From positions 11,628 through 75,627 of IMG/VR virus record IMGVR_UViG_3300042869_000676: a DNA stretch of 64,000 nt; one strand, given 5' to 3'. Origin of the DNA: a virus. Both the position numbers and the translations under genes were made by a program. The notes beneath the pieces were generated by a model, which saw only the letters and a program-made list of their open reading frames with translations, was not told the DNA's origin and did no database searches. Shown piece by piece: positions 1-15,118 of the stretch; position 1 is the stretch's first letter; the number at the start of each line of letters is the position of its first letter.

Positions 1-1
1 T

Positions 2-388
2 GAAGCGGCACCTTCTGTCCGGCGCCCGGCAGTGGTGAGCTTCAATGCCGAAAAGTACATTATGGTAAAGGAAAGTGATTTGAATAAGCTAGTAGAAGAG
101 AAGACTAAAGAAGCTATTTTAAATTCATATAAAATAAAGCCAAACACGAATACTATTTCTGTTAATAATGAGAACACGAATGGTAATGTTGTAAATAATG
201 AGCCTACTGATATTGTTCCAGTTGGGAAAGTGCCAACCGTTGAGACCTTGGTGGTTAAACCACAGGAAACTTCGTCTATTGGCAGGTACTTGGCGACGGT
301 AGTGGTGGTGCTAGGGTTCATCTTAGGAGTGGGCTGGCTGTTCTGGAAGAACAAACTCGCCGCAGCTAAAGAAAAGAAAACCGAGTAA
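2..388 (+). CDS. hypothetical membrane-anchored protein, probably 5'-partial
   Basis: Frame is open from position 2. C-terminal hydrophobic helix (LATVVVVLGFILGVGWLFW) followed by a basic tail. Confidence 0.65.
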   Translation, partial: EAAPSVRRPAVVSFNAEKYIMVKESDLNKLVEEKTKEAILNSYKIKPNTNTISVNNENTNGNVVNNEPTDIVPVGKVPTVETLVVKPQETSSIGRYLATVVVVLGFILGVGWLFWKNKLAAAKEKKTE

Positions 389-390
389 AG

Positions 391-437
391 TGGCGCATTC
401 TTAGGGTTGTGGCGCATTGTTTCGGTTATGGCGCATT
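391..437 (+). repeat. three TGGCGCATT boxes at 19-bp period
   Basis: Copies start at 391, 410 and 429. Confidence 0.85.
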
Positions 438-441
438 TTTC

Positions 442-500
442 GTGGAACATCTTTGCGTTGTGGAACATTTTTGTGGAACATCTTTAGCTTCGTGGAACAT
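442..500 (+). promoter_or_regulatory. four GTGGAACAT boxes (parS half-site-like)
   Basis: Copies at 442, 460, 473 and 492, with the same spacing as the cluster at 6363-6421. Confidence 0.75.
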
Positions 501-532
501 TTGATTTTTTAATCTTTTTTTAAGAAAAGGTA

Positions 533-561
533 TTGACCAGAGGTTAAAAATCATTTTTAAT
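533..561 (+). promoter_or_regulatory. sigma70-type early promoter
   Basis: TTGACC-N17-TTTAAT. Shares GAAAAGGTATTGAC with the promoter at 1760. ATG follows at 570. Confidence 0.6.
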
Positions 562-569
562 TCTGGGGT

Positions 570-797
570 ATGAATGAAACACCAATTAAAAAAGGCAGAG
601 GTCGCCCCGCTGGTGGCACCTCTTTTGTAAACGTGTCTATCGCTGACTTGAAACGGTTCGGAGAAATTCCTGTTCCTGTTTCTCGCGTGTGGCTTGAAAA
701 AATGGGCTTGACGGTCGCAACAATCTCACCCATTGTTAGCGAAGTTAAACAAGAAATTGCTCCCGCTATTGAATTCAAATTGACCCAACTAAACTAA
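570..797 (+). CDS. small protein with an N-terminal AT-hook-like motif
   Basis: KKGRGRP motif. Stop overlaps the next start (TAATG). Confidence 0.75.
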   Translation: MNETPIKKGRGRPAGGTSFVNVSIADLKRFGEIPVPVSRVWLEKMGLTVATISPIVSEVKQEIAPAIEFKLTQLN

Positions 798-1735
798 TGA
801 AAGCTCGTTTCTCCAACCTAATCGGCCAAACTGATGTCAAGAAGAAGTTCGATTTCTATCTCGACTCTCAGAATCAATCACAACGTTTTCCTTTTGTTTT
901 GCTCACGGGCGCAAAGGGAATGGGCAAGACCGAGTTCGCCAAAGAAGCGGCTCGATCTATCGTTGGGAAAAGTGGCGAAGCTCGCCCATTTCTTGAGATC
1001 AACTGCGGCACAATCAAAAACGCGCAAATGTTCTTTGAGCAAGTGTTCGCACCTGTGATTCAAAACAATGAAGTTACTGTTCTGCTGGATGAGTGTCATG
1101 CTCTGCCCAAAGACTTAATGACTGTGCTTCTCTCTGCTTTTAACACTGAGAAAACTGAGCGCAAACAAATCTCTTGGAAGGACGGACTCTACGAGTTCAA
1201 TTTCAAGATGCAGAGTTTCATGTTGGCAACGACTGAACAAGATCGTTTGTTTGGCCCATTGAAAGATCGTTTGCTGTCGATTGATTTTCAAGCCTACTCT
1301 GTGGCGGAAACTGCTGAGATTATCAAACGCGCATTCCCTGACATTAGTTTTGAAGGTGATGTGCTTAGTCTCGTTGCCAAAACTGTTCGTGGAAATGCTC
1401 GCTCTGCTATCCAACGCGCAAAACAGATTGAGATGTATTGCCAGACGAAACACAAGAAAACGTTTGACGTTGCTGACTGGACTTCACTCTGCGACAAGAT
1501 CGGCATCAACTCATCTGGTCTTTCTAATTCTGAGATTCAAGTGTTGACAACTCTTAAACAGCGCGGCGACTGCTCGCTTTCAATGTTGAGCGCAGTCACA
1601 GGTATGTCTCGCTCTGCGCTTCAACGCGACGTGGAAATCTTCCTCTTGCAGCGCGGTTACATGAAGATCGAAGGTTCCAGAAAGATTACCGCAGAAGGTG
1701 TCAAGGCTTTGTCTGCTATCGAGGAGAAAAAATAA
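797..1735 (+). CDS. ruvB: RuvB-like AAA+ ATPase (Holliday junction branch-migration motor family)
   Basis: Walker A GAKGMGKT, Walker B LLDECH, ATT sensor-1, PLKDR arginine finger, RGNAR sensor-2, C-terminal winged helix. 312 aa. Confidence 0.85.
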   Translation: MKARFSNLIGQTDVKKKFDFYLDSQNQSQRFPFVLLTGAKGMGKTEFAKEAARSIVGKSGEARPFLEINCGTIKNAQMFFEQVFAPVIQNNEVTVLLDECHALPKDLMTVLLSAFNTEKTERKQISWKDGLYEFNFKMQSFMLATTEQDRLFGPLKDRLLSIDFQAYSVAETAEIIKRAFPDISFEGDVLSLVAKTVRGNARSAIQRAKQIEMYCQTKHKKTFDVADWTSLCDKIGINSSGLSNSEIQVLTTLKQRGDCSLSMLSAVTGMSRSALQRDVEIFLLQRGYMKIEGSRKITAEGVKALSAIEEKK

Positions 1736-1759
1736 AAAGAAAAAAGATAGGAAAAGGTA

Positions 1760-1787
1760 TTGACGAGTGCAGAAAAATCCTCACACT
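1760..1787 (+). promoter_or_regulatory. sigma70-type promoter for the ncRNA/tRNA operon
   Basis: TTGACG-N16-CACACT with an A-rich upstream tract. Confidence 0.55.
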
Positions 1788-1804
1788 CATTTTCGTTGAG
1801 GTCA

Positions 1805-2200
1805 TCTGACTCCCGCCCCCCACGCCTGACAATACTAGGTGGGGCGGGAAATCAGGTTGTTCTTTCTAATTTTGGTTGAGAAAAAGAGTATCGAGCGCGG
1901 CGAAGAGCCAAGCGACGCCTAATCGACCAAAATTTTGTAACGCTAAAAATCCCAAGCAAGAGTGCTTCTATGTGAAAACGGTAAAAGTCCGTCACGGGAG
2001 GTAAAGCCACGAATAGAGGCTTACTCGTTACAATCTAATTTTTGTGGTGAAGCAAAGTATGGAGCAGCCCTTCCTAGTGCTGGGTATTAGCGGTTGAAAA
2101 CTACCGCCGCCACATTAAAACTTTCCTCAATCCGCCGATCCACATTGGCTGGTGAGGAACCCTGGAAGTGGGTCGCGCATACTTTAATCACGCGAATAAT
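1805..2200 (+). ncRNA. cluster of about 5 structured non-coding RNA elements
   Basis: No ORF in the track. Successive closed stems at 1805-1856, 1868-1934, 1935-2033, 2043-2114 and 2123-2196, separated by short A/T-rich linkers. Confidence 0.6.
2043..2115 (+). ncRNA. tRNA-like element (non-canonical)
   Basis: 7-bp acceptor TGTGGTG/CGCCACA, 5-bp T-stem GCGGT/ACCGC, 73 nt. Atypical T-loop and anticodon loop. Confidence 0.55.
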
Positions 2201-2248
2201 TTTGCTAGCTAAACTAAACAATAACTGATTGCTTAACTAAATACTAAA

Positions 2249-2704
2249 ATGCCTAACTGGTGCCAAAACAACATCGCCATCTCTGGTGATTTAAATAAAT
2301 TTAAAACGTGGCTTAACGGTGAACCGTTCAGCCTGAATAAGATTGTGCCAATGGATCAAATCTTATTGGAAGATGAAGGCTGGCATAATTGGCGCATCGA
2401 GAATTGGGGAACTAAATGGGACGTGGACGTAGAGGCTGAAATCACTTTCAGCGGAGACAGTGCGATACTTATCCACTTCAACAGTGCGTGGGGACCGCCT
2501 AACTTAGCTATCGCTAAGCTCTCAGAATCTTTTCCAGAGATTACAATTGAACACTCTTATCTTGAAGAAGGTATGTGCTTTGTTGGCAAAGATGTCTATT
2601 CTAATGGCGCTCTTCGTAACGCAGTATGCTACGAAGACCCTAGCAAAGAAGAGTGGAAAGAACTTGCCACTGCTGAATTTAACTGGGAACCTTACGAGGA
2701 ATAA
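2249..2704 (+). CDS. DUF1281/YubB ferredoxin-like fold family protein
   Basis: MPNWC N-terminus, W..W...NWGTKW, F.SAWGPP and Y.EEG..F.G motifs. Confidence 0.8.
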   Translation: MPNWCQNNIAISGDLNKFKTWLNGEPFSLNKIVPMDQILLEDEGWHNWRIENWGTKWDVDVEAEITFSGDSAILIHFNSAWGPPNLAIAKLSESFPEITIEHSYLEEGMCFVGKDVYSNGALRNAVCYEDPSKEEWKELATAEFNWEPYEE

Positions 2705-2709
2705 AACTT

Positions 2710-2895
2710 ATGGCTAAAACTAAAACCAAAACAACTTATGCTTTCTCTGTTAATTTTTATAATTTGCTTGAAGCTGCTTCTCAGGAAGAAGCCGAAAAGC
2801 AGGTATTAGAAATTCTCCGCCAAGCTGTAGAAAAGAAAGACCTCTCAGACTTTGAGATTTACTCCCATAGCAAAGATTACTTTTTAATTCACTAA
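2710..2895 (+). CDS. hypothetical protein
   Basis: 61-aa ORF tightly packed in the operon. Confidence 0.65.
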   Translation: MAKTKTKTTYAFSVNFYNLLEAASQEEAEKQVLEILRQAVEKKDLSDFEIYSHSKDYFLIH

Positions 2896-2896
2896 A

Positions 2897-3067
2897 ATGC
2901 CCCTACCAGAAGAAGCAACTTCCACAATGAATACACTGCGATTCATTTACAGTAAGTATAAAGCTGAATTCGATAAAGCTCTCAAGTATGATGAGAAGAA
3001 AGATCGCAAGTATCAGAACGAAATGAGGAAATTGCAACGAGAAAAGCTTAAACAACAAATAGCTTAA
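2897..3067 (+). CDS. hypothetical basic protein (56 aa, not in the ORF track)
   Basis: ATG at 2897, TAA at 3065-3067; MPLPEEATSTMNTLRFIYSKYK...KQQIA. Fills the gap before the tRNAs. Confidence 0.6.
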   Translation: MPLPEEATSTMNTLRFIYSKYKAEFDKALKYDEKKDRKYQNEMRKLQREKLKQQIA

Positions 3068-3074
3068 TAGTTTA

Positions 3075-3149
3075 GTCCTTATCGTATAACGGATAATACA
3101 AGGCTCTTCTAAAGCCTCAATGAAAGTTCGATTCTTTCTGGGGACACCA
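3075..3149 (+). tRNA. tRNA-Arg(TCT)
   Basis: Acceptor GTCCTTA/TGGGGAC, anticodon arm AGGCT-CTTCTAA-AGCCT, GTTCGATTC T-loop, encoded CCA. Confidence 0.9.
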
Positions 3150-3151
3150 TC

Positions 3152-3224
3152 GGGCAGATAGCTTAGTGGTTAAAGCAAAGAACTCATAATTCTGTGATCG
3201 GGGGTTCAAGTCCCTCTCTGCCCA
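3152..3224 (+). tRNA. tRNA with CAT anticodon (Ile2 more likely than elongator Met)
   Basis: Acceptor GGGCAGA/TCTGCCC, loop CTCATAA, GTTCAAGTC. The G1-C72 pair excludes an initiator. No encoded CCA. Confidence 0.85.
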
Positions 3225-3238
3225 TTTCTTTAGAGACA

Positions 3239-3360
3239 AAAGGTGAACCACTTATCTCTTAATACTAAAAGACGAAAGCTGAACTAGATAATACTTAATA
3301 ACGAAAGGTGAACTACTTAATACGTAATAACGAAAGGTGAATGCGTTAATAAGTAATAAT
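3239..3360 (+). repeat. four degenerate 29-36 bp repeats with core AAAGGTGAA
   Basis: Cores at 3239, 3275 (AAAGCTGAA), 3304 and 3333. Two more at 6095 and 6130. Confidence 0.8.
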
Positions 3361-3366
3361 AAAAAC

Positions 3367-3466
3367 AGGGGTAGGTAGGGGTAGGTAGGGGTAGGTAGGG
3401 GTAGGTAGGGGTAGGTAGGGGTAGGTAGGGGTAGGTAGGGGTAGGTAGGGGTAGGTAGGGGTAGGT
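3367..3466 (+). repeat. (AGGGGTAGGT)10 tandem array
   Basis: Ten perfect 10-mers read directly. Confidence 0.95.
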
Positions 3467-3502
3467 GAATTGAGATTGGTTCTCAGTCTCAACGGTGGAG
3501 CA

Positions 3503-3532
3503 GAAAAAACCCGCCCTTTTCGGGGCGGGTCG
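3503..3532 (-). terminator. intrinsic terminator of the DUF932 gene
   Basis: ACCCGCCC-TTTTCG-GGGCGGGT stem with a T-run on the minus strand. Identical to 7497-7526. Confidence 0.85.
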
Positions 3533-3550
3533 CTTTGGCGATCTCTGCGA

Positions 3551-4348
3551 TTAGTTAGCGCCGATCTCGGCAGGCAAAACAACGTTGATTCCTGCGAATG
3601 GGTCGAGGACGCTGTGAAGGATCGAGGACCGAATCGGGAGAGCGTTCAAATTCCCCTTGTAGATTTCGGTGAAGGCATTGTGAAGGCTCCAGAGGTTGCG
3701 CGGTGCAAACTCTTCGTGCAAGGGCTTGTCCCACTGGTCGAGCACATCGGCGATCATATTTTTGCCGATTGCGCCAGACCGATAAGAGCGCAAGATGAGG
3801 TTTCCAGCGGTCTCGTCGTCGAGATTCGTGTTCGTGTATTTTTTGACGCGGGTCTCGTGGTTCGTCCACATCTCGCCAAGCTTACCAAGCGCTTCGCCCA
3901 TTTTCTTGGGTAGGTCGAGCATGATGTTGGTGGTGTGGCGGCGACCGATCACAATTTCGTTGTGGAAAACAAGATTGTCGCAGACGAAAGGTGCGTTGCC
4001 AGCGCAAATGCCAGCGCGAAAATCTTTGCAGTGCGAGTTACGCAAGCCGACAACGGTGCCAGAGGTAGCGCCGTCTTTTTTCATGTCGATCTGAAACAAG
4101 CCAAAGTAATTTTGACCATATTTTGCAAGGGTGTGGTGTTCTTTGATTACGCTCAGGCCTTTTTCTGCGAGCTGGTCGCGGAAAATTTCGACCATGCGAT
4201 TGTGGCTCACTGGCACGAAGCTGCGGGTAGTTTCGGGCAAGGGGACGTTGCCGATATCGGCAAATTCTACGGCGACGTTTCTGCCTCCTGCAACGTGCAG
4301 GTTCAACTCGCGCTTCTGATTAACTTGGGGGACATTTACAGTTTCCAT
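3551..4348 (-). CDS. DUF932 family protein
   Basis: PVSH, VGLRNSH, G...FVCDNL.F, RRHT and LWSLHNAFTE motifs. Confidence 0.75.
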   Translation of the reverse strand: METVNVPQVNQKRELNLHVAGGRNVAVEFADIGNVPLPETTRSFVPVSHNRMVEIFRDQLAEKGLSVIKEHHTLAKYGQNYFGLFQIDMKKDGATSGTVVGLRNSHCKDFRAGICAGNAPFVCDNLVFHNEIVIGRRHTTNIMLDLPKKMGEALGKLGEMWTNHETRVKKYTNTNLDDETAGNLILRSYRSGAIGKNMIADVLDQWDKPLHEEFAPRNLWSLHNAFTEIYKGNLNALPIRSSILHSVLDPFAGINVVLPAEIGAN

Positions 4349-4584
4349 TTTTTTGTGTGTTTTATTGGTTGCGACTAGGTGATCTAGTCGATGAGGAAAA
4401 ACTGAAGTATCTGTTTAGACCGTGCAAGCCTTTTTGACGAATTAGTTGAAAAGAATCTTTGGGTATTTTTGCGGAAGGTGTTGACAAGTGCTTTGATTTT
4501 TTGTTGGGAAAATTGCGCGGCGCGCTTATATCAGAAAATGGCGCAAAGTCAACCCGGTATTTTTCTTTTTAGAAATTATTTATT

Positions 4585-4613
4585 TTGACAACGGTGTTTT
4601 ATTCTGGTAAAAT
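4585..4613 (+). promoter_or_regulatory. near-consensus sigma70 promoter with no downstream ORF
   Basis: TTGACA-N17-TAAAAT with extended TG. Predicted start about 4619-4620, at the G-rich repeat. Confidence 0.7.
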
Positions 4614-4618
4614 AAAAC

Positions 4619-4670
4619 AGGGGTAGGAAAATTTTGATTAGGGGTAGGTAGGGGTAGGGGTAGGAAAATT
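4619..4670 (+). repeat. mixed AGGGGTAGG array
   Basis: Four GGGGTAGG cores with GGAAAATTT spacers. Confidence 0.9.
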
Positions 4671-4688
4671 TGTTCCACGTGGAACAAA
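4669..4688. promoter_or_regulatory. parS-type palindrome TTTGTTCCACGTGGAACAAA
   Basis: Perfect 20-bp palindrome. The 16-bp core TGTTCCACGTGGAACA matches the bacterial chromosomal parS consensus. Confidence 0.65.
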
Positions 4689-4712
4689 AAAAGCGAGGCA
4701 GTTACGCCTCGC
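4686..4712 (-). terminator. intrinsic terminator of the 5994-4742 gene block
   Basis: GCGAGGC-AGTTAC-GCCTCGC stem with a T-run on the minus strand. Confidence 0.75.
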
Positions 4713-4741
4713 AAATTTTGGATGAATTATTTATTTAAAGA

Positions 4742-4933
4742 TTAACTTTTTTGAATTGGAATGAATAGTTTAGTTACTCGTTGATTTCTAGGGTGGTTCA
4801 TATAATTTAAAGATATAGAATGTCCTTTGATTTTATCAATCTTCGCCTCCATACGAGTAAGGAGCCTTCGATCTTTTTCGTTTTGAGCGATCATGCAGAT
4901 GCTCATTGTATCTTCTTTAACGGATGTTTTCAT
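4742..4933 (-). CDS. hypothetical protein
   Basis: 63-aa ORF in a minus-strand operon. Confidence 0.6.
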   Translation of the reverse strand: MKTSVKEDTMSICMIAQNEKDRRLLTRMEAKIDKIKGHSISLNYMNHPRNQRVTKLFIPIQKS

Positions 4934-4940
4934 GTTTCGT

Positions 4941-5219
4941 TTAGTTTTTTTGTTTTATGTATTTCTCCATCTCGTCCCGAATTTCGTCGGGCATGAAGCA
5001 AGAAAAGTATTTTTCAGAACTAGATCCTTTCCAGTCCCAGATTGAGCAGTCGTGGTTTTGACCATCTAATTCCGCTGTGAAATACCAGACGGCGCAACAT
5101 TTTCCATCTATGCTCGCAGTAGGTTGAAAGCCGAGAGCATTTGAAATTTCGTCGATGGTGAAGCCAAAGATAGTTCCGGTTTTGTAATTGTTTCCGATTT
5201 CTGCGGGTGTGATTCTCAT
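4941..5219 (-). CDS. hypothetical protein
   Basis: 92 aa. ATGA overlap with the upstream gene. Confidence 0.7.
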   Translation of the reverse strand: MRITPAEIGNNYKTGTIFGFTIDEISNALGFQPTASIDGKCCAVWYFTAELDGQNHDCSIWDWKGSSSEKYFSCFMPDEIRDEMEKYIKQKN

Positions 5220-5653
5220 TTGTAAAAAATATGATTTTCGATTGTAACTGTTGCAAGCATTTTTTTATTCCAAGATGGATTTATTTTTGTCGTGTGATAA
5301 AACTGTGCGTTTTTCGTGTAATTAGTGGAGCCAAGATTTTGAGCAATTTTGAGAGCGTTTGACCATTTCTTGTGTTTCTTTGCTTTGTTGATCTCAGCTT
5401 CAACATCTTTGCCGTTCCAACAAGAGAACTGTTTGCGCTGCAAACAAACTTGCATTGGCGAAAGTTTGCGCGAGATTGAACGGTTGTAAATCACTTCGGC
5501 AACAGCAGACATTGCGCGAAAATCGCGCTCGCCGCCAGCCTCGGCAATCAAAGTTGCGGCGACAATCTCAGTTGCGCTGACTGTTACAACCGATTTGCTG
5601 TGCAATGAGTTCAGCCCAGAAAAAAACGCGAGGAGAAGGCAAAGGGATTTCAT
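5216..5653 (-). CDS. SleB/Hydrolase_2-family cell wall hydrolase with signal peptide
   Basis: EAGGE, AVAEVIYNR, QFSCWN, FYHT and IENHIFY motifs. Hydrophobic N-terminus. Confidence 0.85.
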   Translation of the reverse strand: MKSLCLLLAFFSGLNSLHSKSVVTVSATEIVAATLIAEAGGERDFRAMSAVAEVIYNRSISRKLSPMQVCLQRKQFSCWNGKDVEAEINKAKKHKKWSNALKIAQNLGSTNYTKNAQFYHTTKINPSWNKKMLATVTIENHIFYK

Positions 5654-5732
5654 TTTTGTTGAGGTGTTGAATGGTTTGGTAACGGGAAAAGTTGTTTGCG
5701 ATAAAGATTTCAGCGAGTTCGTATTCGTTCAT
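5568..5732 (-). CDS. possible 54-aa protein overlapping the hydrolase start
   Basis: ATG at 5732 after an A-rich leader; MNEYELAEIFIANNFSRY...QRN; TGA at 5568-5570. Confidence 0.4.
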   Translation of the reverse strand: MNEYELAEIFIANNFSRYQTIQHLNKNEIPLPSPRVFFWAELIAQQIGCNSQRN

Positions 5733-5740
5733 TTTTTTTG

Positions 5741-5762
5741 AGGGGTAGGGGTAGGAAAATTT
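5741..5762 (+). repeat. short AGGGGTAGGGGTAGGAAAATTT unit
   Basis: Same unit as the 6164 array, squeezed between two ORFs. Confidence 0.85.
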
Positions 5763-5994
5763 AACCAGACGAGTCAGCCCAGAAAGCTAATTTCTTAGAT
5801 GGCGAAATGTAAAGGGATTCGTGCATAGAAAGCCGAATTTCTTTCAAGTCGGTTACGTCGGACAAAACGGCGGGGCGAGTTTTCCAGCCGTTTGCTGCGC
5901 CAAGATTAGTATAGCCAAGTACGTCGTTGAAAAAATTAACTTCAATTTTTTCGCCGTTTAACAAGAGGGTTTTTTTTCCGTGAATGTTGGTCAT
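5761..5994 (-). CDS. hypothetical protein
   Basis: 77 aa, preceded by TTGCAA-N17-TAGTTT on the minus strand (6029-6001). Confidence 0.7.
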   Translation of the reverse strand: MTNIHGKKTLLLNGEKIEVNFFNDVLGYTNLGAANGWKTRPAVLSDVTDLKEIRLSMHESLYISPSKKLAFWADSSG

Positions 5995-6163
5995 GGCTAA
6001 AAACTATTTTTTTTTCGTGGTGGTTGCAAGTTTTTTTTTAGATTTATTTTTTATTTTTTGAGAAAAAAGCTTGACAAGAGTTTCGGCAAATAGTAAAGGT
6101 GAATGAGTTCTGTTCTAATAACAAACATGAAAGGTGAACGTGTTAATACCTAATAACAAATCT

Positions 6164-6327
6164 AGGGGTAGGAAAATTTTTAGGGGTAGGGGTAGGAAAA
6201 TTTTTAGGGGTAGGGGTAGGGGTAGGAAAATTTTTAGGGGTAGGGGTAGGAAAATTTTTAGGGGTAGGGGTAGGAAAATTTTTAGGGGTAGGGGTAGGGG
6301 TAGGAAATTTTTAGGGGTAGGGGTAGG
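6164..6327 (+). repeat. [(AGGGGT)1-3 AGG AAAATTTTT] compound array
   Basis: Seven G-blocks separated by six A3-4/T5 spacers. Confidence 0.95.
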
Positions 6328-6362
6328 CGTTTTGAGATTAGGTCTCAACTTCAATAAACGGC

Positions 6363-6421
6363 GTGGAACATTTCGGCACCGTGGAACATTTTCGTGGAAC
6401 ATTTCGCGCAGCGTGGAACAT
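6363..6421 (+). promoter_or_regulatory. four CGTGGAACATTT boxes (parS half-site-like)
   Basis: GTGGAACAT at 6363, 6381, 6394 and 6413. Confidence 0.75.
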
Positions 6422-6508
6422 TTTGGCGTGCCAACCTCGTTTTTTTAGCAAAGATTTTTTTTTATTTTTTAGTCGTTTTTTTTCGTTGGGTGTGGTTTAT
6501 TTCCTGCG

Positions 6509-7225
6509 ATGAAAAAAACACTTCCCTTGCTTGCTTTCGGCGCGGACGCGAAAACGTCAAAAGGCGCTTTGCTTAATTACTTGACGGGCATTTTATACTT
6601 GGCTCCGGCCAATGAAGGAGGATTTGGAAATCTTTGCGTGAATGCTTCGGCGGGTTGTCTCTTGTCCTGCCTTTTCACGGCGGGGCGGGGTCGGATGTCA
6701 AACGTTCGCCTCGGTCGAATTCGGAAGACACGTTTATTTTTTACGGATAAAAAAGCATTTTTTGAACAGTTAGAAAAGGACATCGCGCGCGGCATGAAAC
6801 GGGCGGCGAAATTGGGGCTAGGGTATTGCGTGCGGCTGAACGGGACGAGCGACGTTCCCTGGGAACGTTTGGGGATTTTCGAAAAATTTCCGTCCGTGCA
6901 ATTTTATGATTACACGAAAAGCGTTTCGCGTGCGCTCGCGCACGCTCGCGGGGAAATGCCGTCGAATTATTATTTGACGTTTTCGCGCTCTGAATCAAAC
7001 GAAACGGACGCGCTCGCAGTGTTGGCTGCGGGCGGCAACGTTGCGGCGGTGTTTTCCTCGCCGAATTACCCGCAAACGTGGAAAGGGTTTGAAGTGGTGG
7101 ACGGTGACAAGTCGGATCTGCGTTTTTTAGACAAGCGGGGCGGCGCTGTGGTTGCGTTGTATGCGAAGGGAAAAGCGAAAAAGGACGCAAGCGGCTTCGT
7201 CATTCAAACGGGGGGCGGCGCGTGA
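6509..7225 (+). CDS. phage gene product 88 (GP88)-like protein
   Basis: C..AS.GC...CL..AGRG, VRLNGTSD..W, FYDYTK, YYLTFSRSE and DGD..DLRFLD motifs. Confidence 0.75.
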   Translation: MKKTLPLLAFGADAKTSKGALLNYLTGILYLAPANEGGFGNLCVNASAGCLLSCLFTAGRGRMSNVRLGRIRKTRLFFTDKKAFFEQLEKDIARGMKRAAKLGLGYCVRLNGTSDVPWERLGIFEKFPSVQFYDYTKSVSRALAHARGEMPSNYYLTFSRSESNETDALAVLAAGGNVAAVFSSPNYPQTWKGFEVVDGDKSDLRFLDKRGGAVVALYAKGKAKKDASGFVIQTGGGA

Positions 7226-7290
7226 TTTCTTTTATCGTCTTTTTGGTGGTGCTCTGGTTTATGCTATCAAAGCAAAGGGCCAAGCGATAA
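7222..7290 (+). CDS. 22-aa membrane peptide MISFIVFLVVLWFMLSKQRAKR
   Basis: GTG start overlaps the gp88 stop (GTGA). Ends 3 nt before the terminator stem. Confidence 0.55.
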   Translation: MISFIVFLVVLWFMLSKQRAKR

Positions 7291-7293
7291 AAC

Positions 7294-7325
7294 GGGGCGG
7301 GCCTAGCGGCTCGCCTCTTTTTTTT
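7294..7325 (+). terminator. intrinsic terminator
   Basis: GGGGCGGGCC-TAGC-GGCTCGCCTC followed by T8. Confidence 0.85.
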
Positions 7326-7374
7326 GTGCGCGTGTGCGCGTGTGCGCGTGTGCGCGTGTGCGCGTGTGCGCGTG
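7325..7374. repeat. (TGTGCGCG)6 alternating purine-pyrimidine tract
   Basis: 50 bp of strict Y-R alternation. Confidence 0.95.
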
Positions 7375-7380
7375 ATGCGT

Positions 7381-7493
7381 AGGGGTAGGGGTAGGGGTAG
7401 GGGTAGGGGTAGGGGTAGGGGTAGGGGTAGGGGTAGGGGTAGGGGTAGGGGTAGGGGTAGGGGTAGGGGTAGGGGTAGGGGTAGGGGTAGGGG
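7381..7493 (+). repeat. (AGGGGT)18-AGGGG telomere-like array
   Basis: 19 GGGG tracts at 6-bp period. Confidence 0.95.
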
Positions 7494-7496
7494 CAC

Positions 7497-7526
7497 GAAA
7501 AAACCCGCCCTTTTCGGGGCGGGTCG
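7497..7526 (-). terminator. intrinsic terminator
   Basis: 30-bp exact copy of 3503-3532. Confidence 0.85.
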
Positions 7527-7550
7527 TTGGTTGCGTTGCGTTGCTTTGCG

Positions 7551-8081
7551 TTAGCTTACGCGGCGCACGCTCCGCACCGCAATCAAATTTTTTTCCCCTA
7601 GCGTATAACAAGCAAATTCCTTTTTCTCGGCAAATTCAGACGCGAGGCAAAGGGACTCGATCACGGCACGGGAGACGCTTTTCCCGTTGAGACGGAAAAC
7701 GGTTTTGCAAGCGCGGGGCGTGCCGTCGCTGTTGTTCACGGGGTAAAGGCGGAGATAGAAAGCTCCCTTGTGCTCTATCAAACGATTCTCCATGCCGTCA
7801 ACCCATTTGCCCCACGGTAAACCCTGATTCTCTGCGGGCGCGTCGCCATTGGCGCGGGCCTCGATGACCGATTGGCGGTTGTCGTGCTTTGCGCCGACTT
7901 GAACCGTTGAGCGGACTGATTTTGTGATGATGTCGGAAACTCCTTTGCGGGTTTTCATCGGGCGGCTCCATGAGACGCCAACAAATTGACCGGCGGGCAC
8001 GCTCAAAAGTGCGGCGGCGATTGGTGACAAGGTGGCGGTTGCGGTTGCGGTTGCGGTGGCGGTGGCGGTGGCTGTTTTCAT
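7551..8081 (-). CDS. hypothetical early protein with an N-terminal Thr-Ala repeat
   Basis: 176 aa. LPWG.W and IEHKG..YLRLYP motifs. A/C-rich leader and its own terminator. Confidence 0.75.
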   Translation of the reverse strand: MKTATATATATATATATLSPIAAALLSVPAGQFVGVSWSRPMKTRKGVSDIITKSVRSTVQVGAKHDNRQSVIEARANGDAPAENQGLPWGKWVDGMENRLIEHKGAFYLRLYPVNNSDGTPRACKTVFRLNGKSVSRAVIESLCLASEFAEKKEFACYTLGEKNLIAVRSVRRVS

Positions 8082-8189
8082 ATGTGTTTTTTTTGTGTTG
8101 TTGTTGGTAACGAAAAACAGCGTGCATTTTTATTTGCCGAATTCAAGAAAAAAATCGCACGAACTATTTTTTTATTTTTAGAAATTCGC

Positions 8190-8219
8190 TTGACACGTTT
8201 TTTGTTTTTTTGGTAGGAT
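8190..8219 (+). promoter_or_regulatory. sigma70-type promoter pointing into the palindrome array
   Basis: TTGACA-N18-TAGGAT with extended TG. Confidence 0.55.
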
Positions 8220-8227
8220 GCGAAAAA

Positions 8228-8402
8228 CACTATAGCGAATTCTATAGTGGCGCGAGGAAATGATATAGCGTTGTATCAAAAATGATATAGCACTATATCA
8301 AAAAGTATATAGCGCTATATACACCCCCCGCCCTTATATAAAAAAGTATATAGCGAATTGTATAGGGCGCGGGGGGGGATGGTAATTCCTCACTCTACCA
8401 TC
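8228..8402. repeat. phased TATAGC palindrome array with C/G-tract inverted repeat (candidate origin or packaging/terminus site)
   Basis: 18-bp palindromic units at 8261, 8283 and 8305 (22-bp period). Related units at 8228 and 8346. CCCCCCGCCC...GGGCGCGGGGGGGG. Confidence 0.75.
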
Positions 8403-8614
8403 AATTTAAACCATCTTAATTTAATTACCCCCAAGGCTATCTTTACTTATCTCACTTACATTTACTTGCTTTACTTACCCTTGATTAGCTTATATATCTT
8501 ACCTGTATATAAACATACCTAAAAGAAACACTATCCCCCCACCCTTTTCTGAGAAAATGAGAAAATATCTAAAAGAATAGGAACAAAAACTCACTTTCCG
8601 GGCGGGGGAGAATT

Positions 8615-9211
8615 TTACCTAGCCTTTGGCTTAATTCCTTCTTCTTCTAGCTGTTTATCATAGGCTAAAGAAACGAGCATAGCTTCTTCATGTGTTTCAA
8701 AATAACCTAAATGTTTGCCGCATCTTTTAACACGGTATTTTTTAGATCCATCTTTAAACGTTAATATGAATATTCCGTACTTATAATTTTTTAGTTTTTT
8801 ATTGTTATTATTTTGCTTCATAGTAACTTCATATAAATTAGATATAGAGTTATTTAAGGGATTTTTATCTCTATGATCTACAAGCATATTTATTTCAGGC
8901 CAACGCTTGTGATACATAGTATATAGCAAAGTATGAACATGGTGATTTTTTCTTTTAAACGAGGTCCTTTTGTATCCGTTCCATATACTAGTAATCTCTT
9001 TGCCTGAATTTCTGTTAGTTAATGTGCCTTTTTCAAAATCAGCGATAAATGACTCCGACAAATCTTCTGGAGTTGGTCTATTTTTGTATTCAAAATAAAG
9101 CTTTACAAACTCGTCTATATCCATATGCTGGCTTCTTTTATAACGAAAAATCGCATCTTTTTCTTGAAAAGACATAGATAGCTCTTCTGGCTGTTGATTT
9201 TCTTGATTCAT
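8615..9211 (-). CDS. HNH homing endonuclease with a C-terminal AP2-like domain
   Basis: VDHRDKNPLNN..SNL...T..QN and HLGYFET..EA motifs. Confidence 0.8.
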   Translation of the reverse strand: MNQENQQPEELSMSFQEKDAIFRYKRSQHMDIDEFVKLYFEYKNRPTPEDLSESFIADFEKGTLTNRNSGKEITSIWNGYKRTSFKRKNHHVHTLLYTMYHKRWPEINMLVDHRDKNPLNNSISNLYEVTMKQNNNNKKLKNYKYGIFILTFKDGSKKYRVKRCGKHLGYFETHEEAMLVSLAYDKQLEEEGIKPKAR

Positions 9212-9214
9212 AAA

Positions 9215-9919
9215 TTAACCTTCGTTGAAAAATTCTCCGTGTAATTTTCGACCTATTTCATCTCGCCAAGCTTTAAGTATTTGAATTGTAGCTTCAACAA
9301 ATTCTTTTTTAACAGTCATCGACTTGAAATATTTCTTCCCATTACAAGAAACACAAGCATCAACACGCACGCGATCATCAGAAATAGAACGCACAAAAAC
9401 ACCTTTTACCCCTGATTTGTTACTTTCGTACAATGATTTGTTACTGGCGTTTTGAGAATTAGTACTTTCTCTTAGATTGCAAGGTCTATTATCTGTTTTA
9501 TCTTCATTTATATGATCTACCTTATAGCCTTTTTTGGCCCAACGACCATTATGTAAACAAAAAATAATTTTATTAAGAAAAACCGTAAAATAATAACCCT
9601 CAAATTTTATACTGGCTACTATATATCCCTGACGTTTTAAAAAGCCAACTTTATCACCAGCCTTTTTATTACCACTGTTGTTTTTTAAAAACAAATTTCC
9701 ATCTTCGTCATGATAATACATCTTAGCTAATTGTTCTGGAGAAATAACATCTTCAATCCTTTTTTTTGGCCCCTTATACTCCCAAACATCCATTGCATAG
9801 TTGAAGTTTTCTATTCCGCCGATTCTTTTTACTAAGAGTCTAATTTCAGCAAGCATTTCTGCCGTCACAATTAACTCTTTTTTTTGATTTGTTTGTTTTG
9901 CTTTTTTAGTTAGCGCCAT
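9215..9919 (-). CDS. HNH homing endonuclease
   Basis: VDHINEDKTDNR..NLR..T.SQN..N and NKSGVKGV motifs. Confidence 0.85.
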   Translation of the reverse strand: MALTKKAKQTNQKKELIVTAEMLAEIRLLVKRIGGIENFNYAMDVWEYKGPKKRIEDVISPEQLAKMYYHDEDGNLFLKNNSGNKKAGDKVGFLKRQGYIVASIKFEGYYFTVFLNKIIFCLHNGRWAKKGYKVDHINEDKTDNRPCNLRESTNSQNASNKSLYESNKSGVKGVFVRSISDDRVRVDACVSCNGKKYFKSMTVKKEFVEATIQILKAWRDEIGRKLHGEFFNEG

Positions 9920-9928
9920 ATAAATACT

Positions 9929-10450
9929 TTACTTAACCTTTTCCGCTAAAAGCGCCAACAACTCATTAGAGATATCTTCTTTATCTACCGTATAATCAGG
10001 AAGAGTAGTAGAAGAGCCTGAATAATGGTCAAATTCGGAAACTTGAACGTAATTCAACGGCCCCAAATGCGCCAAATAGCGACATTTTTCTTCGTTATAG
10101 TCTTCTGGAAGGTTATCGAACAACCAAACAGCGCCCGGTTCAATTTGAGGAATTTTGCCAGTGCGCCCGCGAATATCCTCACGAGAGTATATATCTTCGG
10201 CCTCAAATCCAAAGGAAAAGGCTTTGTTCATGGCAAGAGCATAGTCTCTTGTAGCTACTGTGAGCATAAAAACCTTAGCCTTCTTACGAGCTTGCTCAAG
10301 AAACGCGACAGAACATTCTCTAACCTTCGTATTATAATGCTCTTTTGAGCTTAAAGTTATCTTTTGATAACCGGGCATAACTGATTTGGAGAATAATCCA
10401 TAAGTATGGATTAATGTTTCATCTAAGTCAACGAATATGTATTTGTTCAT
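9929..10450 (-). CDS. HAD-superfamily (FCP1/NIF-like) phosphatase
   Basis: FVDLDETLIH motif I, T.A.RDYA, and LFDN. Confidence 0.75.
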   Translation of the reverse strand: MNKYIFVDLDETLIHTYGLFSKSVMPGYQKITLSSKEHYNTKVRECSVAFLEQARKKAKVFMLTVATRDYALAMNKAFSFGFEAEDIYSREDIRGRTGKIPQIEPGAVWLFDNLPEDYNEEKCRYLAHLGPLNYVQVSEFDHYSGSSTTLPDYTVDKEDISNELLALLAEKVK

Positions 10451-10482
10451 GTTATGCCTTAATTAAAAATATTAAAAATAGC

Positions 10483-11019
10483 TCAATCAAAGTTGCTAAT
10501 TTGAATCCCAAGTACAAGGTCATCCCCAGTACTATCCTGTTTTTCAGTGTTTTCATTAAATTTTGGTATTTTGTGTAGGTATGGTTCTAAATCAAATCTT
10601 CCAGCGTGAAATTCGGCGTGGCAGTTCTTGCATAATGGGGCGCATTTCTGTAGTTCTTTTATAAGTTCTTCATCATCTAATTTTCTTCTACACTCTCCTA
10701 TCTCAAACTTTTTCTCTGACGGGACAATGTGATGAAAGTCTATTGCTTCCGGAACAGAATGTCCGCATCTGATACATGCGCCGCCTAAATGGTTAATATA
10801 ACTAATTTTTAAACATCTTGCTACATCTCTCCTCGTTTTTAAATTTCTATGTGGAGTTTTATCATGGCATTCTTTACAACTTCCCCTAAGACCAAATCGA
10901 CCTGCCTTATTCACATAGAAATCAGAGAAAAGCTTAAGCAATTTACAAGCACGACAAGTTTTATGTGTTACAGTTTGATGCGTCACTAAAGTATCAACTA
11001 TTGTATCAGTTTGCGTCAT
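10483..11019 (-). CDS. zinc-binding HNH endonuclease
   Basis: CxxC pairs, DFHH and LCKNCH..FH motifs. Confidence 0.75.
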   Translation of the reverse strand: MTQTDTIVDTLVTHQTVTHKTCRACKLLKLFSDFYVNKAGRFGLRGSCKECHDKTPHRNLKTRRDVARCLKISYINHLGGACIRCGHSVPEAIDFHHIVPSEKKFEIGECRRKLDDEELIKELQKCAPLCKNCHAEFHAGRFDLEPYLHKIPKFNENTEKQDSTGDDLVLGIQISNFD

Positions 11020-11212
11020 TCAAATCCTCTTCATAAGGTGGCTGAGAACCATTTTTAATATAAAAAAACAATTCTTTTAAGCCTTTAACAAAGTCACGCC
11101 CGGCTTCTTTAGAGTTAAAGGTCATTTGAATCAAGAATGTTAAGCCTCCCAGCACAATAAAGGCTGGGATAGCTAATAGCGCCCAAATTAATCTAAAAAC
11201 TAAGCTTTTCAT
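11006..11212 (-). CDS. small membrane protein
   Basis: Likely ATG at 11212 (MKSLVFRL...). One hydrophobic helix. Confidence 0.6.
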   Translation of the reverse strand: MKSLVFRLIWALLAIPAFIVLGGLTFLIQMTFNSKEAGRDFVKGLKELFFYIKNGSQPPYEEDLNDAN

Positions 11213-11213
11213 T

Positions 11214-11813
11214 TTAGGTCCAAAACTTTTCGCGGTTTTTAACCACAAAGTCGCACAAAACTGTGTCGCATTCGTTAAGGTGTTTGTCCATTTCAATGTA
11301 AGCTGTGAAATTATCATTCTCTAAACTCAAAGCGTGATTGTGAATATCGTCTAAAAGCTTTTGCCGTCCACCTTTAGCGTAATCGTAAGCTTCTTTAAGT
11401 TGTTTAACGAATTGAATTTCCTTTTCAGTCTCTGAACAAATATGTTCAAGATATTTTTCTCTTTCAACTAGCTCAACAACGCAAGCAAGATGAAACAAAA
11501 CAATAATTTCGACCATATCCATTTCTCCGCTCTTATCAAACACAGCGTTACGAAACTCTTTGCGTGGATGACGCAAGAAATTCTTGATTTTGCGCTTAAT
11601 AAATCGGTAATTGGAACCAACTGAATAATAGCAATCATCATAAGTTTCTCTTAGGAAACGCTGAACAGGATACTGAACGGACAAGTAAGCGTAATACTTG
11701 TCCCACTCTCTAAAACCTAGAGCGTATGGCGCAACGTACCACCCAGTAGGCCAAAACCATACTTTCTTTTCTGTTTTTTCTTTACCTTGTGAAATGTATT
11801 CTTCTGCTGTCAT
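11214..11813 (-). CDS. hypothetical protein
   Basis: 199-aa ORF in the operon. Confidence 0.75.
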   Translation of the reverse strand: MTAEEYISQGKEKTEKKVWFWPTGWYVAPYALGFREWDKYYAYLSVQYPVQRFLRETYDDCYYSVGSNYRFIKRKIKNFLRHPRKEFRNAVFDKSGEMDMVEIIVLFHLACVVELVEREKYLEHICSETEKEIQFVKQLKEAYDYAKGGRQKLLDDIHNHALSLENDNFTAYIEMDKHLNECDTVLCDFVVKNREKFWT

Positions 11814-11818
11814 ATTAT

Positions 11819-12454
11819 TTAGAGTTCGATTGTTCTAGCAGTGTTAATTGGTTTGTATTGTTCAGTGCAGATAGCTGCATTAACAAACATAGTGTTGTTT
11901 TTAACTTCAATGCCGTAGCCATTGTGGATATGGCCAAAAACATGAAGCTTAAGTTTAAGGTTTTCAGTGATTGTAGTGAATAAGTTGGCGCATCCAACGT
12001 GAACATTGCCCGGAGCTTTGTCAAGAATACTCATAGGTGGACCATGAGTAATCAAAACATCAGTATTTTTTGGAATCAAGTTCCAATGTTCTTGAATAGC
12101 CAATCCGCGTTTGCGATTAAACGCCCAATCAAAGAATTCTGGTTGAACTGGCGATCCCCAAAAGTTTAAACCTTCAATTGTGACGCCTTCATCTTGAAGA
12201 TAGTGAATGCCCGGCGGTATGATCGCGTTGATTTCAGAACGGCTTGCTTTTTCCATCCATTTATCATGATTACCAGCGATAACAAGCTTGTATTTGTGCG
12301 GCAAAGAGCCGAACCATGCGAAAAACTCGACGCAATCAAAGTAATCGCCGCCATTACAAAAGTCTCCAGAGTGGATAATCATATCTCCATCTGGAATCTT
12401 ACCTTTTAAATGACCGTGAAGTCCATGAGTGTCTGAAATACAAATAATTTTCAT
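11819..12454 (-). CDS. calcineurin-like metallophosphoesterase
   Basis: SDTH, HSGD, AGNHD, LITHGPP and FGHIH motifs. Confidence 0.92.
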   Translation of the reverse strand: MKIICISDTHGLHGHLKGKIPDGDMIIHSGDFCNGGDYFDCVEFFAWFGSLPHKYKLVIAGNHDKWMEKASRSEINAIIPPGIHYLQDEGVTIEGLNFWGSPVQPEFFDWAFNRKRGLAIQEHWNLIPKNTDVLITHGPPMSILDKAPGNVHVGCANLFTTITENLKLKLHVFGHIHNGYGIEVKNNTMFVNAAICTEQYKPINTARTIEL

Positions 12455-12687
12455 ACGAATTCAACCATTTCTTTGTCGCCATCTACGATATACTTTAAAA
12501 ATGTTTTATATTCTTCGCTAACGGTAGATTCAATACCGATTACATAAGCAGTCATTAAAATATCGGACAAGAGCTTCTCTTGCGTTTCCGTAGAGTAAGC
12601 TTTTAGCGCGTTAATGTGGCCTTCAAACTTTTTTGGAAGCTTTAACTTTGCTGGTTTTTTGTTTTTTAGATTTTTCTTTGGTTTCAT
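12451..12687 (-). CDS. hypothetical protein
   Basis: 78 aa, ATGA coupling to the next gene. Confidence 0.65.
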   Translation of the reverse strand: MKPKKNLKNKKPAKLKLPKKFEGHINALKAYSTETQEKLLSDILMTAYVIGIESTVSEEYKTFLKYIVDGDKEMVEFV

Positions 12688-12910
12688 TAGTTTCTACTCC
12701 ATAATAATCACAAACTATGCGAAGAGCACCCGCGAGAGTGAGGTTGTATTCCAAATCCTCTGTTTCCCAACTTTCTAATTTCTTTTTAGACTGCAAAATT
12801 TTAACATTTTGCATTGTATTCTCATAATGCCATTTGAGGCTAGTTGATGTGAGACTATCGGCCAAATCTGCGCTAAAGAGAGGAATCTCTGAGAGAGTTT
12901 TTGAGTTCAT
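12623..12910 (-). CDS. hypothetical protein
   Basis: Likely ATG at 12910 (MNSKTLSEI...). Confidence 0.65.
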   Translation of the reverse strand: MNSKTLSEIPLFSADLADSLTSTSLKWHYENTMQNVKILQSKKKLESWETEDLEYNLTLAGALRIVCDYYGVETNETKEKSKKQKTSKVKASKKV

Positions 12911-13091
12911 AATTTTTAGAGTGGTCGGTTTTAAACCAAATGTCAAGACTTTGTGATAAGAAATCGTAAAATTCATCATCTTCTCGCACAGAATTAAAAC
13001 GAATGTCTCGATTTGCGAGTTCTTGATACACCGCAGCAGTCATTGCAACGATGTCTCCTTTGTAGATTTCTTTGTTAGTTGTTAAGGTCAT
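12873..13091 (-). CDS. hypothetical protein
   Basis: 72 aa, ATGA coupling to the upstream gene. Confidence 0.6.
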   Translation of the reverse strand: MTLTTNKEIYKGDIVAMTAAVYQELANRDIRFNSVREDDEFYDFLSQSLDIWFKTDHSKNYELKNSLRDSSL

Positions 13092-13648: not shown

Positions 13649-13652
13649 AAAA

Positions 13653-13901: not shown

Positions 13902-13953
13902 AAGTTATAGTAGTTCAAGAGGTGGTTTTTCCAGTTAAAGTGTAAAAAATAGC

Positions 13954-14319: not shown

Positions 14320-14323
14320 TCAG

Positions 14324-15112: not shown

Positions 15113-15118
15113 CACTTT

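Follow-up and report, generated by a model that had tools for sequence, protein, structure and literature searches.

Repeated DNA sites have been described in phages and plasmids in several functional settings. Iteron replicons are exemplified by incC and incA of P1, with RepA, and by the lambda origin, with the O protein; the stoperators of mycobacteriophage L5 are asymmetric repressor sites, intergenic and set in one orientation; in the first-step-transfer DNA of T5 a repeat-rich non-coding region is the injection stop signal; and the FtsK-orienting polar sequences (KOPS) have the consensus GGGNAGGG. ParB of Pseudomonas aeruginosa binds single GTTCCAC half-sites genome-wide, independently of its dimerisation (PMC10419367). 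In T4-type phages, two reports present the promoter early stem-loop (PeSL) elements as mobile regulatory cassettes of hyperplastic regions, where repeated composite promoter/terminator motifs flank small, variable and mostly unknown genes, and where indels, replacements and reordering occur between close relatives at the repeats (PMC2839356, PMC4122927). Here we analysed an 8-kb island (positions 389-8610) in a window of 64,000 nucleotides (the whole stretch analysed, corresponding to positions 11,628 to 75,627 of the IMG/VR virus record IMGVR_UViG_3300042869_000676), in which G-rich GGGGTA arrays, iterons built on the 8-mer GTGGAACA, palindromes, promoters and terminators are set between small gene cassettes (Table 1).

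The island is a real, bounded and special conserved unit. Relatives' loci were collected from IMG/VR and from metagenomes by two routes, the RuvB-like protein encoded in the island and the iteron pattern, and the motif tables cover 13 loci, i.e., the window and 12 relatives. A syntenic island was present in a clade of 38-40% GC (L001, L002, L045, L046, L054, L058, L059 and others) as well as in a clade of 49% GC (L041, L051, L053, L056), in which the RuvB-like protein is 72% identical; the siblings L058 and L059 share ~91% nucleotide identity with the window. In the relatives the island is placed behind a conserved operon encoding an AT-hook protein and a RuvB-like ATPase. Of the island's sampled words, 79% or more recur in each of 23 DNA runs from lakes or freshwater; a megablast of the island against phage and plasmid collections returned no match, and a host search gave just five metagenome-assembled genome bins with discordant taxa. 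The reading we favour, tentatively and with slightly less than even confidence, is that the spacers of the island follow a phage-specific grammar of boundaries and regulation, and that in this lineage a presumed pair of protein and operator gave way to a structure-prone element.

The structure-prone element consists of the G-rich arrays. The first-pass annotation had noticed five co-oriented arrays, and indeed GGGGTAGG occurs 49 times in the 75,627-bp contig of which the window forms the last 64 kb, always on the + strand and always inside the island, against a chance expectation of 0.53 (49 copies were reached in 0 of 100 shuffles), the copies forming five co-oriented arrays between 3367 and 7493. 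The observation is thereby confirmed; of the other motifs, 10 of 13 GTGGAACA boxes (12 of the 13 lie in the window) and 5 of 7 copies of AAAGGTGAA fall inside the island. The arrays are not an assembly artefact, since two independent assemblies have them at the same places: L057, 97% identical over window positions -2560 to 3418, shares array 1, and L031, 89-98% identical over 7411-16090, shares array 5. Both contigs break inside an array. The arrays, present in three independent assemblies, are a trait of this lineage, as L058 and L059 lack them, and variants with G arrays and with the palindrome described below were both recovered from one lake sample, where a loose end was seen at 3360. Arrays 1 and 5 fit the canonical G-quadruplex pattern (at least four runs of at least three G, loops of 1-7 nt), arrays 2 and 4 fit it only with longer loops, and the genome holds just two other canonical matches, both within collagen-like repeats; including a G-quadruplex term in the folding prediction gained ~44 kcal/mol for array 1 and ~154 kcal/mol for array 5. 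The G-rich strand is the non-template strand for rightward transcription of the tRNA operon and the GP88 gene, and from the promoter-like site at 4585 and the TTGACA hexamer at 6071. Both are on the + strand, the former preceding array 2 and the latter array 4, and arrays 1 and 5 are flanked by convergent terminators. Elsewhere in IMG/VR, (GGGGTA)4 was found in 33 stretches, mostly as single arrays, and all of them except that of L031 lie in unrelated contigs of varied GC content.

The array-free relatives examined carry instead 1-9 copies of a 15-bp palindrome, CCGGGCC-N-GGCCCGG, with L073 as sole exception; in these relatives the palindrome adjoins iteron arrays and CTATATA-type motifs. All its copies in G001 and G004 fall within the island; G000 and G003 have none, and neither does the window genome. 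In the alignments, a left flank of AAAGGTGAA units and a right flank (TGAGATT..TCTCAAC) are common to the window, L058, L059, L068 and L071, and between these flanks stands array 1 or array 4 in the window versus the palindrome in the four relatives. Arrays 1 and 4 occupy the exact slots of the palindrome, which is an unusual situation, and the swap is recent, because siblings as close as L058 and L059 have the palindrome. Array 2 is only loosely equivalent to a palindrome position: it adjoins an iteron pair, and in L001 the palindrome abuts a six-copy iteron array in a similar place. For arrays 3 and 5 no palindrome counterpart was seen among the relatives.

The palindrome travels with a gene. 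Every palindrome-bearing locus that covers the slot (G001, G004-G007, L046, L051, L054, L058, L059, L068, L071) encodes a helix-turn-helix (HTH)-like protein of 97-190 aa with a conserved C-terminal part of ~65 residues (GWLxEEERxKIAFYAQxLP...IAxKFxxSxxTV), a family that had no match in Pfam, PHROG or PDB sequences. The gene is absent from both palindrome-free records, G000 and G003, and the window genome is devoid of gene and palindrome alike, a 63-aa open reading frame (ORF) occupying the gene's position. The co-occurrence is suggestive, and the protein is a candidate trans-acting factor for the palindrome. The palindrome itself has different surroundings in different groups: in L075-L077, from a clade with 70-71% identity in the RuvB-like protein, it forms the middle of an extended symmetric site, TTTTACAA..palindrome..TTGTAAAA, and in the 49% GC clade a TTGACR hexamer often precedes it by 1-16 nt and CTATATA motifs follow it.

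The G arrays could alternatively be neutral microsatellites, i.e., a G-rich seed expanded by slippage in spacers that had been freed by the loss of the palindrome and its binder. Their units are perfect tandem repeats whose structure and copy number differ from slot to slot, only one recent lineage has them, unrelated viral contigs show short (GGGGTA)n arrays here and there, and a possible seed, GGGGAAAATTCCCC, adjoins the palindrome in the 49% GC clade. On the other hand, one and the same unit would have had to expand five times independently, each time on the same strand, within 4 kb of a 75-kb contig and in no other part of it, and neither their precise placement in conserved slots nor the retention of arrays in a copy diverged to 89% identity speaks for neutrality, so that we consider this explanation doubtful.

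The second component of the grammar is the iterons. From 137 unique sites a 14-bp asymmetric consensus, yCGTGGAACAWTTT, was derived, and the sites are spaced by 19, 18 or 13 bp only, 19 (or 18) alternating with 13, which gives a period of 32 bp or about three helical turns; arrays count 2-10 copies, all on one strand. The window has 12 copies of GTGGAACA (1.19 expected), and the two identically spaced quartets reported in the first-pass annotation are indeed present, at 442/460/473/492 and 6363/6381/6394/6413, with the same 18/13/19 spacing. Iterons are kept in both the 38-40% and the 49% GC clades. In the half-genome relatives G001 and G002 the island contains 22 of 23 and 6 of 7 copies, respectively, all on one strand; in four distant relatives that encode the RuvB-like protein, of which three reach a completeness of at least 95%, GTGGAACA occurs only as scattered single copies and not in arrays. 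The GTGGAACA boxes are phased 14-bp iterons confined to the island and kept in two sub-clades. They resemble L5 stoperators in being asymmetric, numerous, strictly co-oriented and restricted to short intergenic spaces, but in L5 the sites stand singly throughout the genome and are oriented with transcription, whereas here tandem phased arrays keep one orientation whatever the gene direction and lie in one 8-kb island. A second iteron-like motif, GTGGCGCATT, precedes quartet 1 (Table 1), and in L001 (17690-17730) it occurs as two copies on the opposite strand, ~28 bp apart, at the right edge of the island.

As to the protein that may bind the iterons, every iteron-positive island has the hydrolase cassette with its small HTH-appearing ORF, which is only a weak lead; the 54-aa ORF of the window (5568-5732) is 64% identical to the L001 copy, but matches the 49% GC clade only marginally (E = 3e-4 from one comparison). 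The AT-hook protein p75 was also considered and is not supported as iteron binder, as G004-G006 have a near-identical p75 N-terminal region and no GTGGAACA arrays.

p75 (75 aa) and the RuvB-like ATPase (312 aa) form the operon at the left of the island. The ATPase matches RuvB_N (PF05496, 30.6 bits, cut-off 27) and RuvB_C (PF05491, 33.2 bits, cut-off 24.7), and RuvB structures align to its residues 6-301 (E = 6e-17). In most of 80 loci, on phage contigs of up to 213 kb, the RuvB-like gene is immediately preceded by a p75-type gene, whose product combines the RGRP hook with a short helical part (VSKKWL) and a C-terminal strand, KIEFxLT, that is conserved. Together the two genes make up a module conserved across a large group of contigs from aquatic phages (L072-L151). 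In the complex model, the C-terminal strand of p75 (residues 65-75) docks on residues 49-93 of the ATPase with an interface score (ipSAE) of 0.73, a mark that 58 of 80 solved complexes and 2 of 110 mismatched pairs attained, against 0.08 for the best control; the runs share at least 77% of contacts, and the predicted local distance difference test (pLDDT) of the partner is at least 54. The model supports a docking of p75 on the RuvB-like ATPase. The model of p75 alone had a pLDDT of 69 and two short helices, which was too weak to search for similar folds, and the protein Atlas gave nothing useful for p75 or for the 176-aa protein encoded near the right edge. The module is comparable with RuvAB in that the ATPase aligns over its full length with RuvB and a small DNA-binding partner is encoded upstream and predicted to dock. 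The partner is however a 75-aa AT-hook protein unrelated to RuvA, and the predicted contact lies elsewhere than on the RuvA-binding hairpin.

Such a motor beside helically phased iterons brings in the main rival of the regulatory reading, namely that the island is a replication origin region, in which the iterons would load or control an initiator or helicase, possibly the p75/RuvB-like pair, R-loops at the G arrays would prime or open the origin, and the additional arrays would be control sites. As in iteron replicons, the repeats are direct, asymmetric and helically phased, one array lies directly upstream of the adjacent operon (in the 38-40% GC clade) and others a few kb away; they are co-oriented and restricted to the island, and the neighbouring operon supplies a RuvB-type hexameric motor with winged helix and a predicted AT-hook adaptor. 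Different fourfold repeats lie upstream of the module in distant relatives, T-run and A-run tracts adjoin the arrays in relatives, and on the + strand G exceeds C and T exceeds A, minus-strand genes included. The origin reading stays alive because the same 8-mer arrays, in direct and inverted sets, adjoin primase-helicase genes (DUF3854/DUF927/HTH_56; DUF5906/VapE-like) in the unrelated viral contigs L037, L042 and L055, where they look like replication origins. In contrast, four to six arrays are distributed over 7 kb at cassette boundaries rather than forming one origin, relatives with the same operon, a near-identical p75 and a RuvB-like protein 70-74% identical are devoid of such arrays, the adjacent ATPase is RuvB-like and RuvB-family proteins are not known initiators, and about half of the genome, where other replication genes or origins may exist, is unseen. 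The cumulative GC skew, proposed by the first-pass annotation as a check, has no global turning point at the island. An origin function is thus possible but rather unlikely. Resemblance to a DnaA box extends, by eye, to only 7-8 of 9 positions.

The first-pass annotation had also seen a parS-type palindrome and had read the island as a site of recruitment or titration of host chromosome machinery. By this account GTGGAACA and the palindrome would bind host ParB, the GGGTAGGG arrays would steer an FtsK-type translocase and the TGAGA..TCTCA repeats would bind a Fur-type regulator. The palindrome exists: the 16-bp CC/GG-type motif TGTTNCACGTGNAACA has one perfect copy, TGTTCCACGTGGAACA, at 4671-4686, the 8-mer equals one arm of it, and the base preceding the 8-mer is mostly C, as at the centre of parS. 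The idea of ParB binding is not absurd, because ParB of P. aeruginosa binds half-sites (PMC10419367), and the 8-mer does not vary between sub-clades whose proteins are 72% identical, a constancy that would fit a strongly conserved host protein. However, the full palindrome TTCCACGTGGAA was not found in L001 or L002 and belongs to this strain only; in the relatives the boxes occur solely as direct repeats, phased at 19/13 and flanked by a conserved WTTT that is no part of parS, G004-G006 lack GTGGAACA arrays, and no ParB_N (PF02195) gene was matched in G000, G001 and G002, each record being about half a genome. Regarding translocation, the arrays contain GGGTAGGG, which matches the KOPS consensus. 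The GGGNAGGG octamers lie only inside the five local tandem arrays and are not dispersed along a replichore, and their strand polarity is not conserved, because the ~91% identical siblings without arrays carry a symmetric palindrome at the equivalent places. Recruitment of host chromosome machinery by the island is not supported, and as a host-factor decoy the island appears improbable; overall the earlier interpretation is supported in part.

The spacers follow an order, from AAAGGTGAA units to a GC-rich structure-prone element, then to a TGAGA..TCTCA repeat and/or CTATAG palindromes, and finally to iteron arrays, and this grammar comes with promoters and terminators. According to the favoured reading, the island would be the control and accessory region that follows the p75/RuvB-like operon, and its spacers would work as boundary and regulatory modules for convergent and divergent cassettes. 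Iterons would nucleate a cooperative, polar array of a phage protein, and the GC palindrome would be the operator of the HTH-like protein. In this lineage that protein-operator pair would have been swapped for protein-independent DNA prone to G-quadruplexes and R-loops, the G-rich DNA on the non-template strand acting possibly as a roadblock or insulator, and the repeated spacers may double as recombination substrates for cassette shuffling. A more specific version, in which the microsatellites replaced the palindrome and its HTH-like protein as a swappable insulator or priming element and the polar iterons orient a RuvB-type motor recruited by the AT-hook protein, seems to us unlikely.

Several points weigh against the regulatory reading. 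The binders of all elements are presumed, none of them being more than hypothetical, and p75 lacks support in that role; the HTH-like protein is so called from the appearance of its sequence, and its co-occurrence with the palindrome may amount to one or two evolutionary events only. Replacement of the palindrome is documented by alignment for arrays 1 and 4 only, and the arrays could be products of neutral replication slippage. Co-orientation of the iterons regardless of gene direction fits replication or translocation at least equally well. Moreover, when the part at 300-3366 was compared with sample contigs, the RNA-library contigs belonged to a related strain (90-95%) and showed neither strand nor level.

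In its organisation the island comes near the PeSL regions. Duplicated terminator hairpins are present, repeated spacer modules stand at every cassette boundary, and between the window and L058 or L001 the break-points fall at the repeats, with swapped order and genes replaced between conserved spacers; in L058 the hydrolase cassette precedes the DUF932 cassette, the reverse of the window. Cassette content and order vary between strains at the repeated spacers. The first-pass annotation had proposed examining whether relatives keep the motif order while exchanging genes, and they do keep the motif grammar and the slot order while genes and cassettes are swapped. Compared with the PeSL regions, the spacers here add phased iterons, GC palindromes or G-quadruplex arrays and operator-like palindromes; the cassettes lie on both strands, and the island belongs to an unrelated long-tailed lineage.

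Dense direct and inverted repeats and palindromes among small genes are reminiscent also of T5, another large siphovirus with tRNAs and HNH endonucleases, and the island might represent first-entering or terminal DNA, its repeats being injection-stop, pac or concatemer-junction signals. Among the products of the window are a large terminase (19182-21110), PhoH, several clustered HNH endonucleases and a tape-measure protein of 2,229 aa, and the window therefore derives from a long-tailed phage, uncultured and known from lake metagenomes; its genome probably measures ~130-150 kb, of which the contig would be about half, given a record completeness of ~52% (CheckV) and a 131-kb contig with a 96% identical RuvB-like protein. 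The island lies ~11 kb upstream of the terminase gene, its elements are co-oriented, and many assemblies break at its repeats. Such breaks are however expected of short-read assembly, and the repeats, set between cassettes, are dispersed among several spacers and do not gather at one site. The contig has no terminal repeat and its 3' end falls within a collagen-like coding repeat, so its ends are assembly breaks; no pile-up of contig ends was seen in the part at 300-3366, among assembled contigs only, and there is no homology to the T5 pre-early genes. The terms early and origin-proximal in the first-pass annotation are interpretations, not things observed. An entry or packaging role is very improbable. 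Long coding repeats of collagen-like type (Gly-X-Y, rich in CAAGGN) recur at 31289-31869, 34791-37265, 39670-40073, 42358-42575 and 63035-63966 in several large tail or fibre genes, and it is inside one of these that the contig ends.

Table 1. Coordinates of the features of the island, in window positions (+ and -, strand;., no strand assigned).
Position	Strand	Feature	Remark
390-437	+	Three GTGGCGCATT-type boxes, 19-bp spacing; second iteron-like motif	Also in L058
442-499	+	Iteron quartet 1 (yCGTGGAACAWTTT)	Upstream of p75 promoter; conserved in L001, L002, L058, L059
570-797	+	p75, small AT-hook protein (GRGRPAGG)	Partner upstream of RuvB-like gene in most of 80 loci
797-1735	+	RuvB-like AAA+ ATPase, C-terminal winged helix	Full-length RuvB structure match
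1740-2248	+	Conserved non-coding leader, candidate structured RNA	Variable modules at 1870-2100
2249-2704	+	DUF1281_C (Api92-like) gene, variable cassette	E = 1.4e-13
2710-3067	+	Two small conserved genes, 61 aa and 56 aa	
3075-3224	+	tRNA-Arg(TCT), tRNA-Met(CAT)	
3239-3359	+	29-bp units with AAAGGTGAA, ~3.5 copies	Conserved left flank of slot
3367-3466	+	G array 1, (AGGGGTAGGT)x10	Slot occupied by GC palindrome in relatives; L057 ends inside
3470-3492	.	TGAGA..TCTCA inverted repeat	Conserved right flank of slot
3508-3531	-	Terminator hairpin	Identical to 7502-7525 copy
3551-4348	-	DUF932-like gene, conserved island member	Weak Pfam match
4585-4613	+	Sigma-70-type promoter (11/12, extended -10)	Best match in 1-10000; reads into array 2
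4620-4664	+	G array 2, GGGGTAGG with AAAATTT spacers	
4669-4688	.	20-bp palindrome, inverted iteron pair, parS-like	This strain only
4693-4712	-	Terminator hairpin	
4742-4933	-	63-aa ORF	In position of relatives' HTH-like gene
4941-5732	-	Cassette: 92-aa gene, SleB-type cell-wall hydrolase (Hydrolase_2), overlapping 54-aa HTH-appearing ORF (5568-5732)	
5742-5755	+	G array 3, two units	
5761-5994	-	77-aa ORF	Strain-specific
6095-6138	+	Two AAAGGTGAA units	Downstream of TTGACA hexamer at 6071
6163-6327	+	G array 4, compound (GGGGTA)2-3 GG AAAATTTTTA unit, ~7 repeats	
6332-6348	.	TGAGA..TCTCA inverted repeat	
6363-6420	+	Iteron quartet 2	Upstream of GP88 gene
6509-7225	+	GP88-family gene (PF17338)	Conserved island member
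7294-7317	+	Terminator hairpin, T8 tail	
7325-7374	.	(GTGCGCGT)n tract, alternating purine-pyrimidine, self-complementary	
7379-7493	+	G array 5, (GGGGTA)x19	L031 starts inside
7502-7525	-	Terminator hairpin	Duplicate of 3508-3531
7551-8081	-	176-aa gene, 57% GC, no known family	Beta-barrel model, weak WYL/Sm-like matches
8190-8219	+	Sigma-70-type promoter match (10/12)	
8226-8365	.	Phased TATAGCG / CTATAG palindromes, operator-like	CTATATA motifs flank relatives' GC palindrome
8369-8610	+	Conserved non-coding, few G on + strand by eye, ends in hairpin	Right edge of island

Among the remaining elements, the 50-bp alternating tract, the inverted repeats, the duplicated terminators and the phased palindromes that had been listed from the sequence are all present, and the tract at 7325-7374 is the only alternating purine-pyrimidine stretch of at least 20 nt in the genome. 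Of the back-to-back sigma-70 promoters, two + strand consensus matches stood, but the site at 4481 is a TTGACA hexamer only, the other lying at 4585. The genes at 3551-4348, 6509-7225 and 7551-8081 are GC-rich as claimed, with 52-57% compared with ~31-40% in the other genes measured. Regarding the DUF1281- and DUF932-type genes, the former was confirmed by its DUF1281_C match, but the DUF932 match (PF06067) is weak, with 21.8 bits (below the cut-off of 23; E = 1.8e-4) over residues 42-229 of 265, the product being only a probable distant member of the family.

The 176-aa protein has a 96% identical copy beside the array in L031. Its model (pLDDT 82.6) gave nothing at E of 0.001 or below in a Foldseek search of the PDB, and its best VIA-align matches, PafBC, BrxR, CapW and DriD, reached Z of 5.2-6.2, under the common level of ~8, over 78-84 residues with a root-mean-square deviation of 2.5-4.8. 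In the hydrolase cassette, the 54-aa ORF overlaps the start of the hydrolase gene (5216-5653, minus strand) by 86 nt in another frame, and both frames look conserved between the window phage and L001.

The candidate leader at 1740-2248 lies downstream of a promoter-like site, AAAAGGTATTGAC, and has a long GC hairpin and two further conserved stems; its sequences are too alike for covariation to show, and the two tRNAs of the island were the only Rfam matches. Its portion at 1870-2100 is a variable insert, partly present in some relatives, pieces of which occur in other contigs beside tRNA-like 3' ends. At the other end of the island, the promoter match at 8190 reads through the TATAGCG palindromes into ~250 nt of apparently G-poor conserved non-coding sequence, and this stretch (8190-8610) is a possible non-coding RNA. 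Directly to the right, three genes for HNH-type endonucleases with a low GC content of 31-37% occupy the minus strand at 8615-11019. These genes have the usual opposite skew sign; the excess of G over C and T over A on the + strand spans 3001-9000, the minus-strand genes of the island included, and could be explained by a mutational bias between strands or by a foreign origin.

If the G arrays are neutral and the iterons ordinary operators, the island would be an ordinary hyperplastic regulatory region, a type that is well documented. If instead the boundary and regulatory reading is true, a near-isogenic pair of phages in the same lakes would bear a protein-bound palindrome and G-quadruplex arrays, respectively, in identical slots, and would make it possible to test on natural material whether non-B DNA can take the place of a protein and its operator in phage gene control or replication. 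Two things have been defined for widespread uncultured large aquatic phages, the AT-hook/RuvB-like module and the repeat grammar, and the latter explains the assembly of these genomes as halves only.

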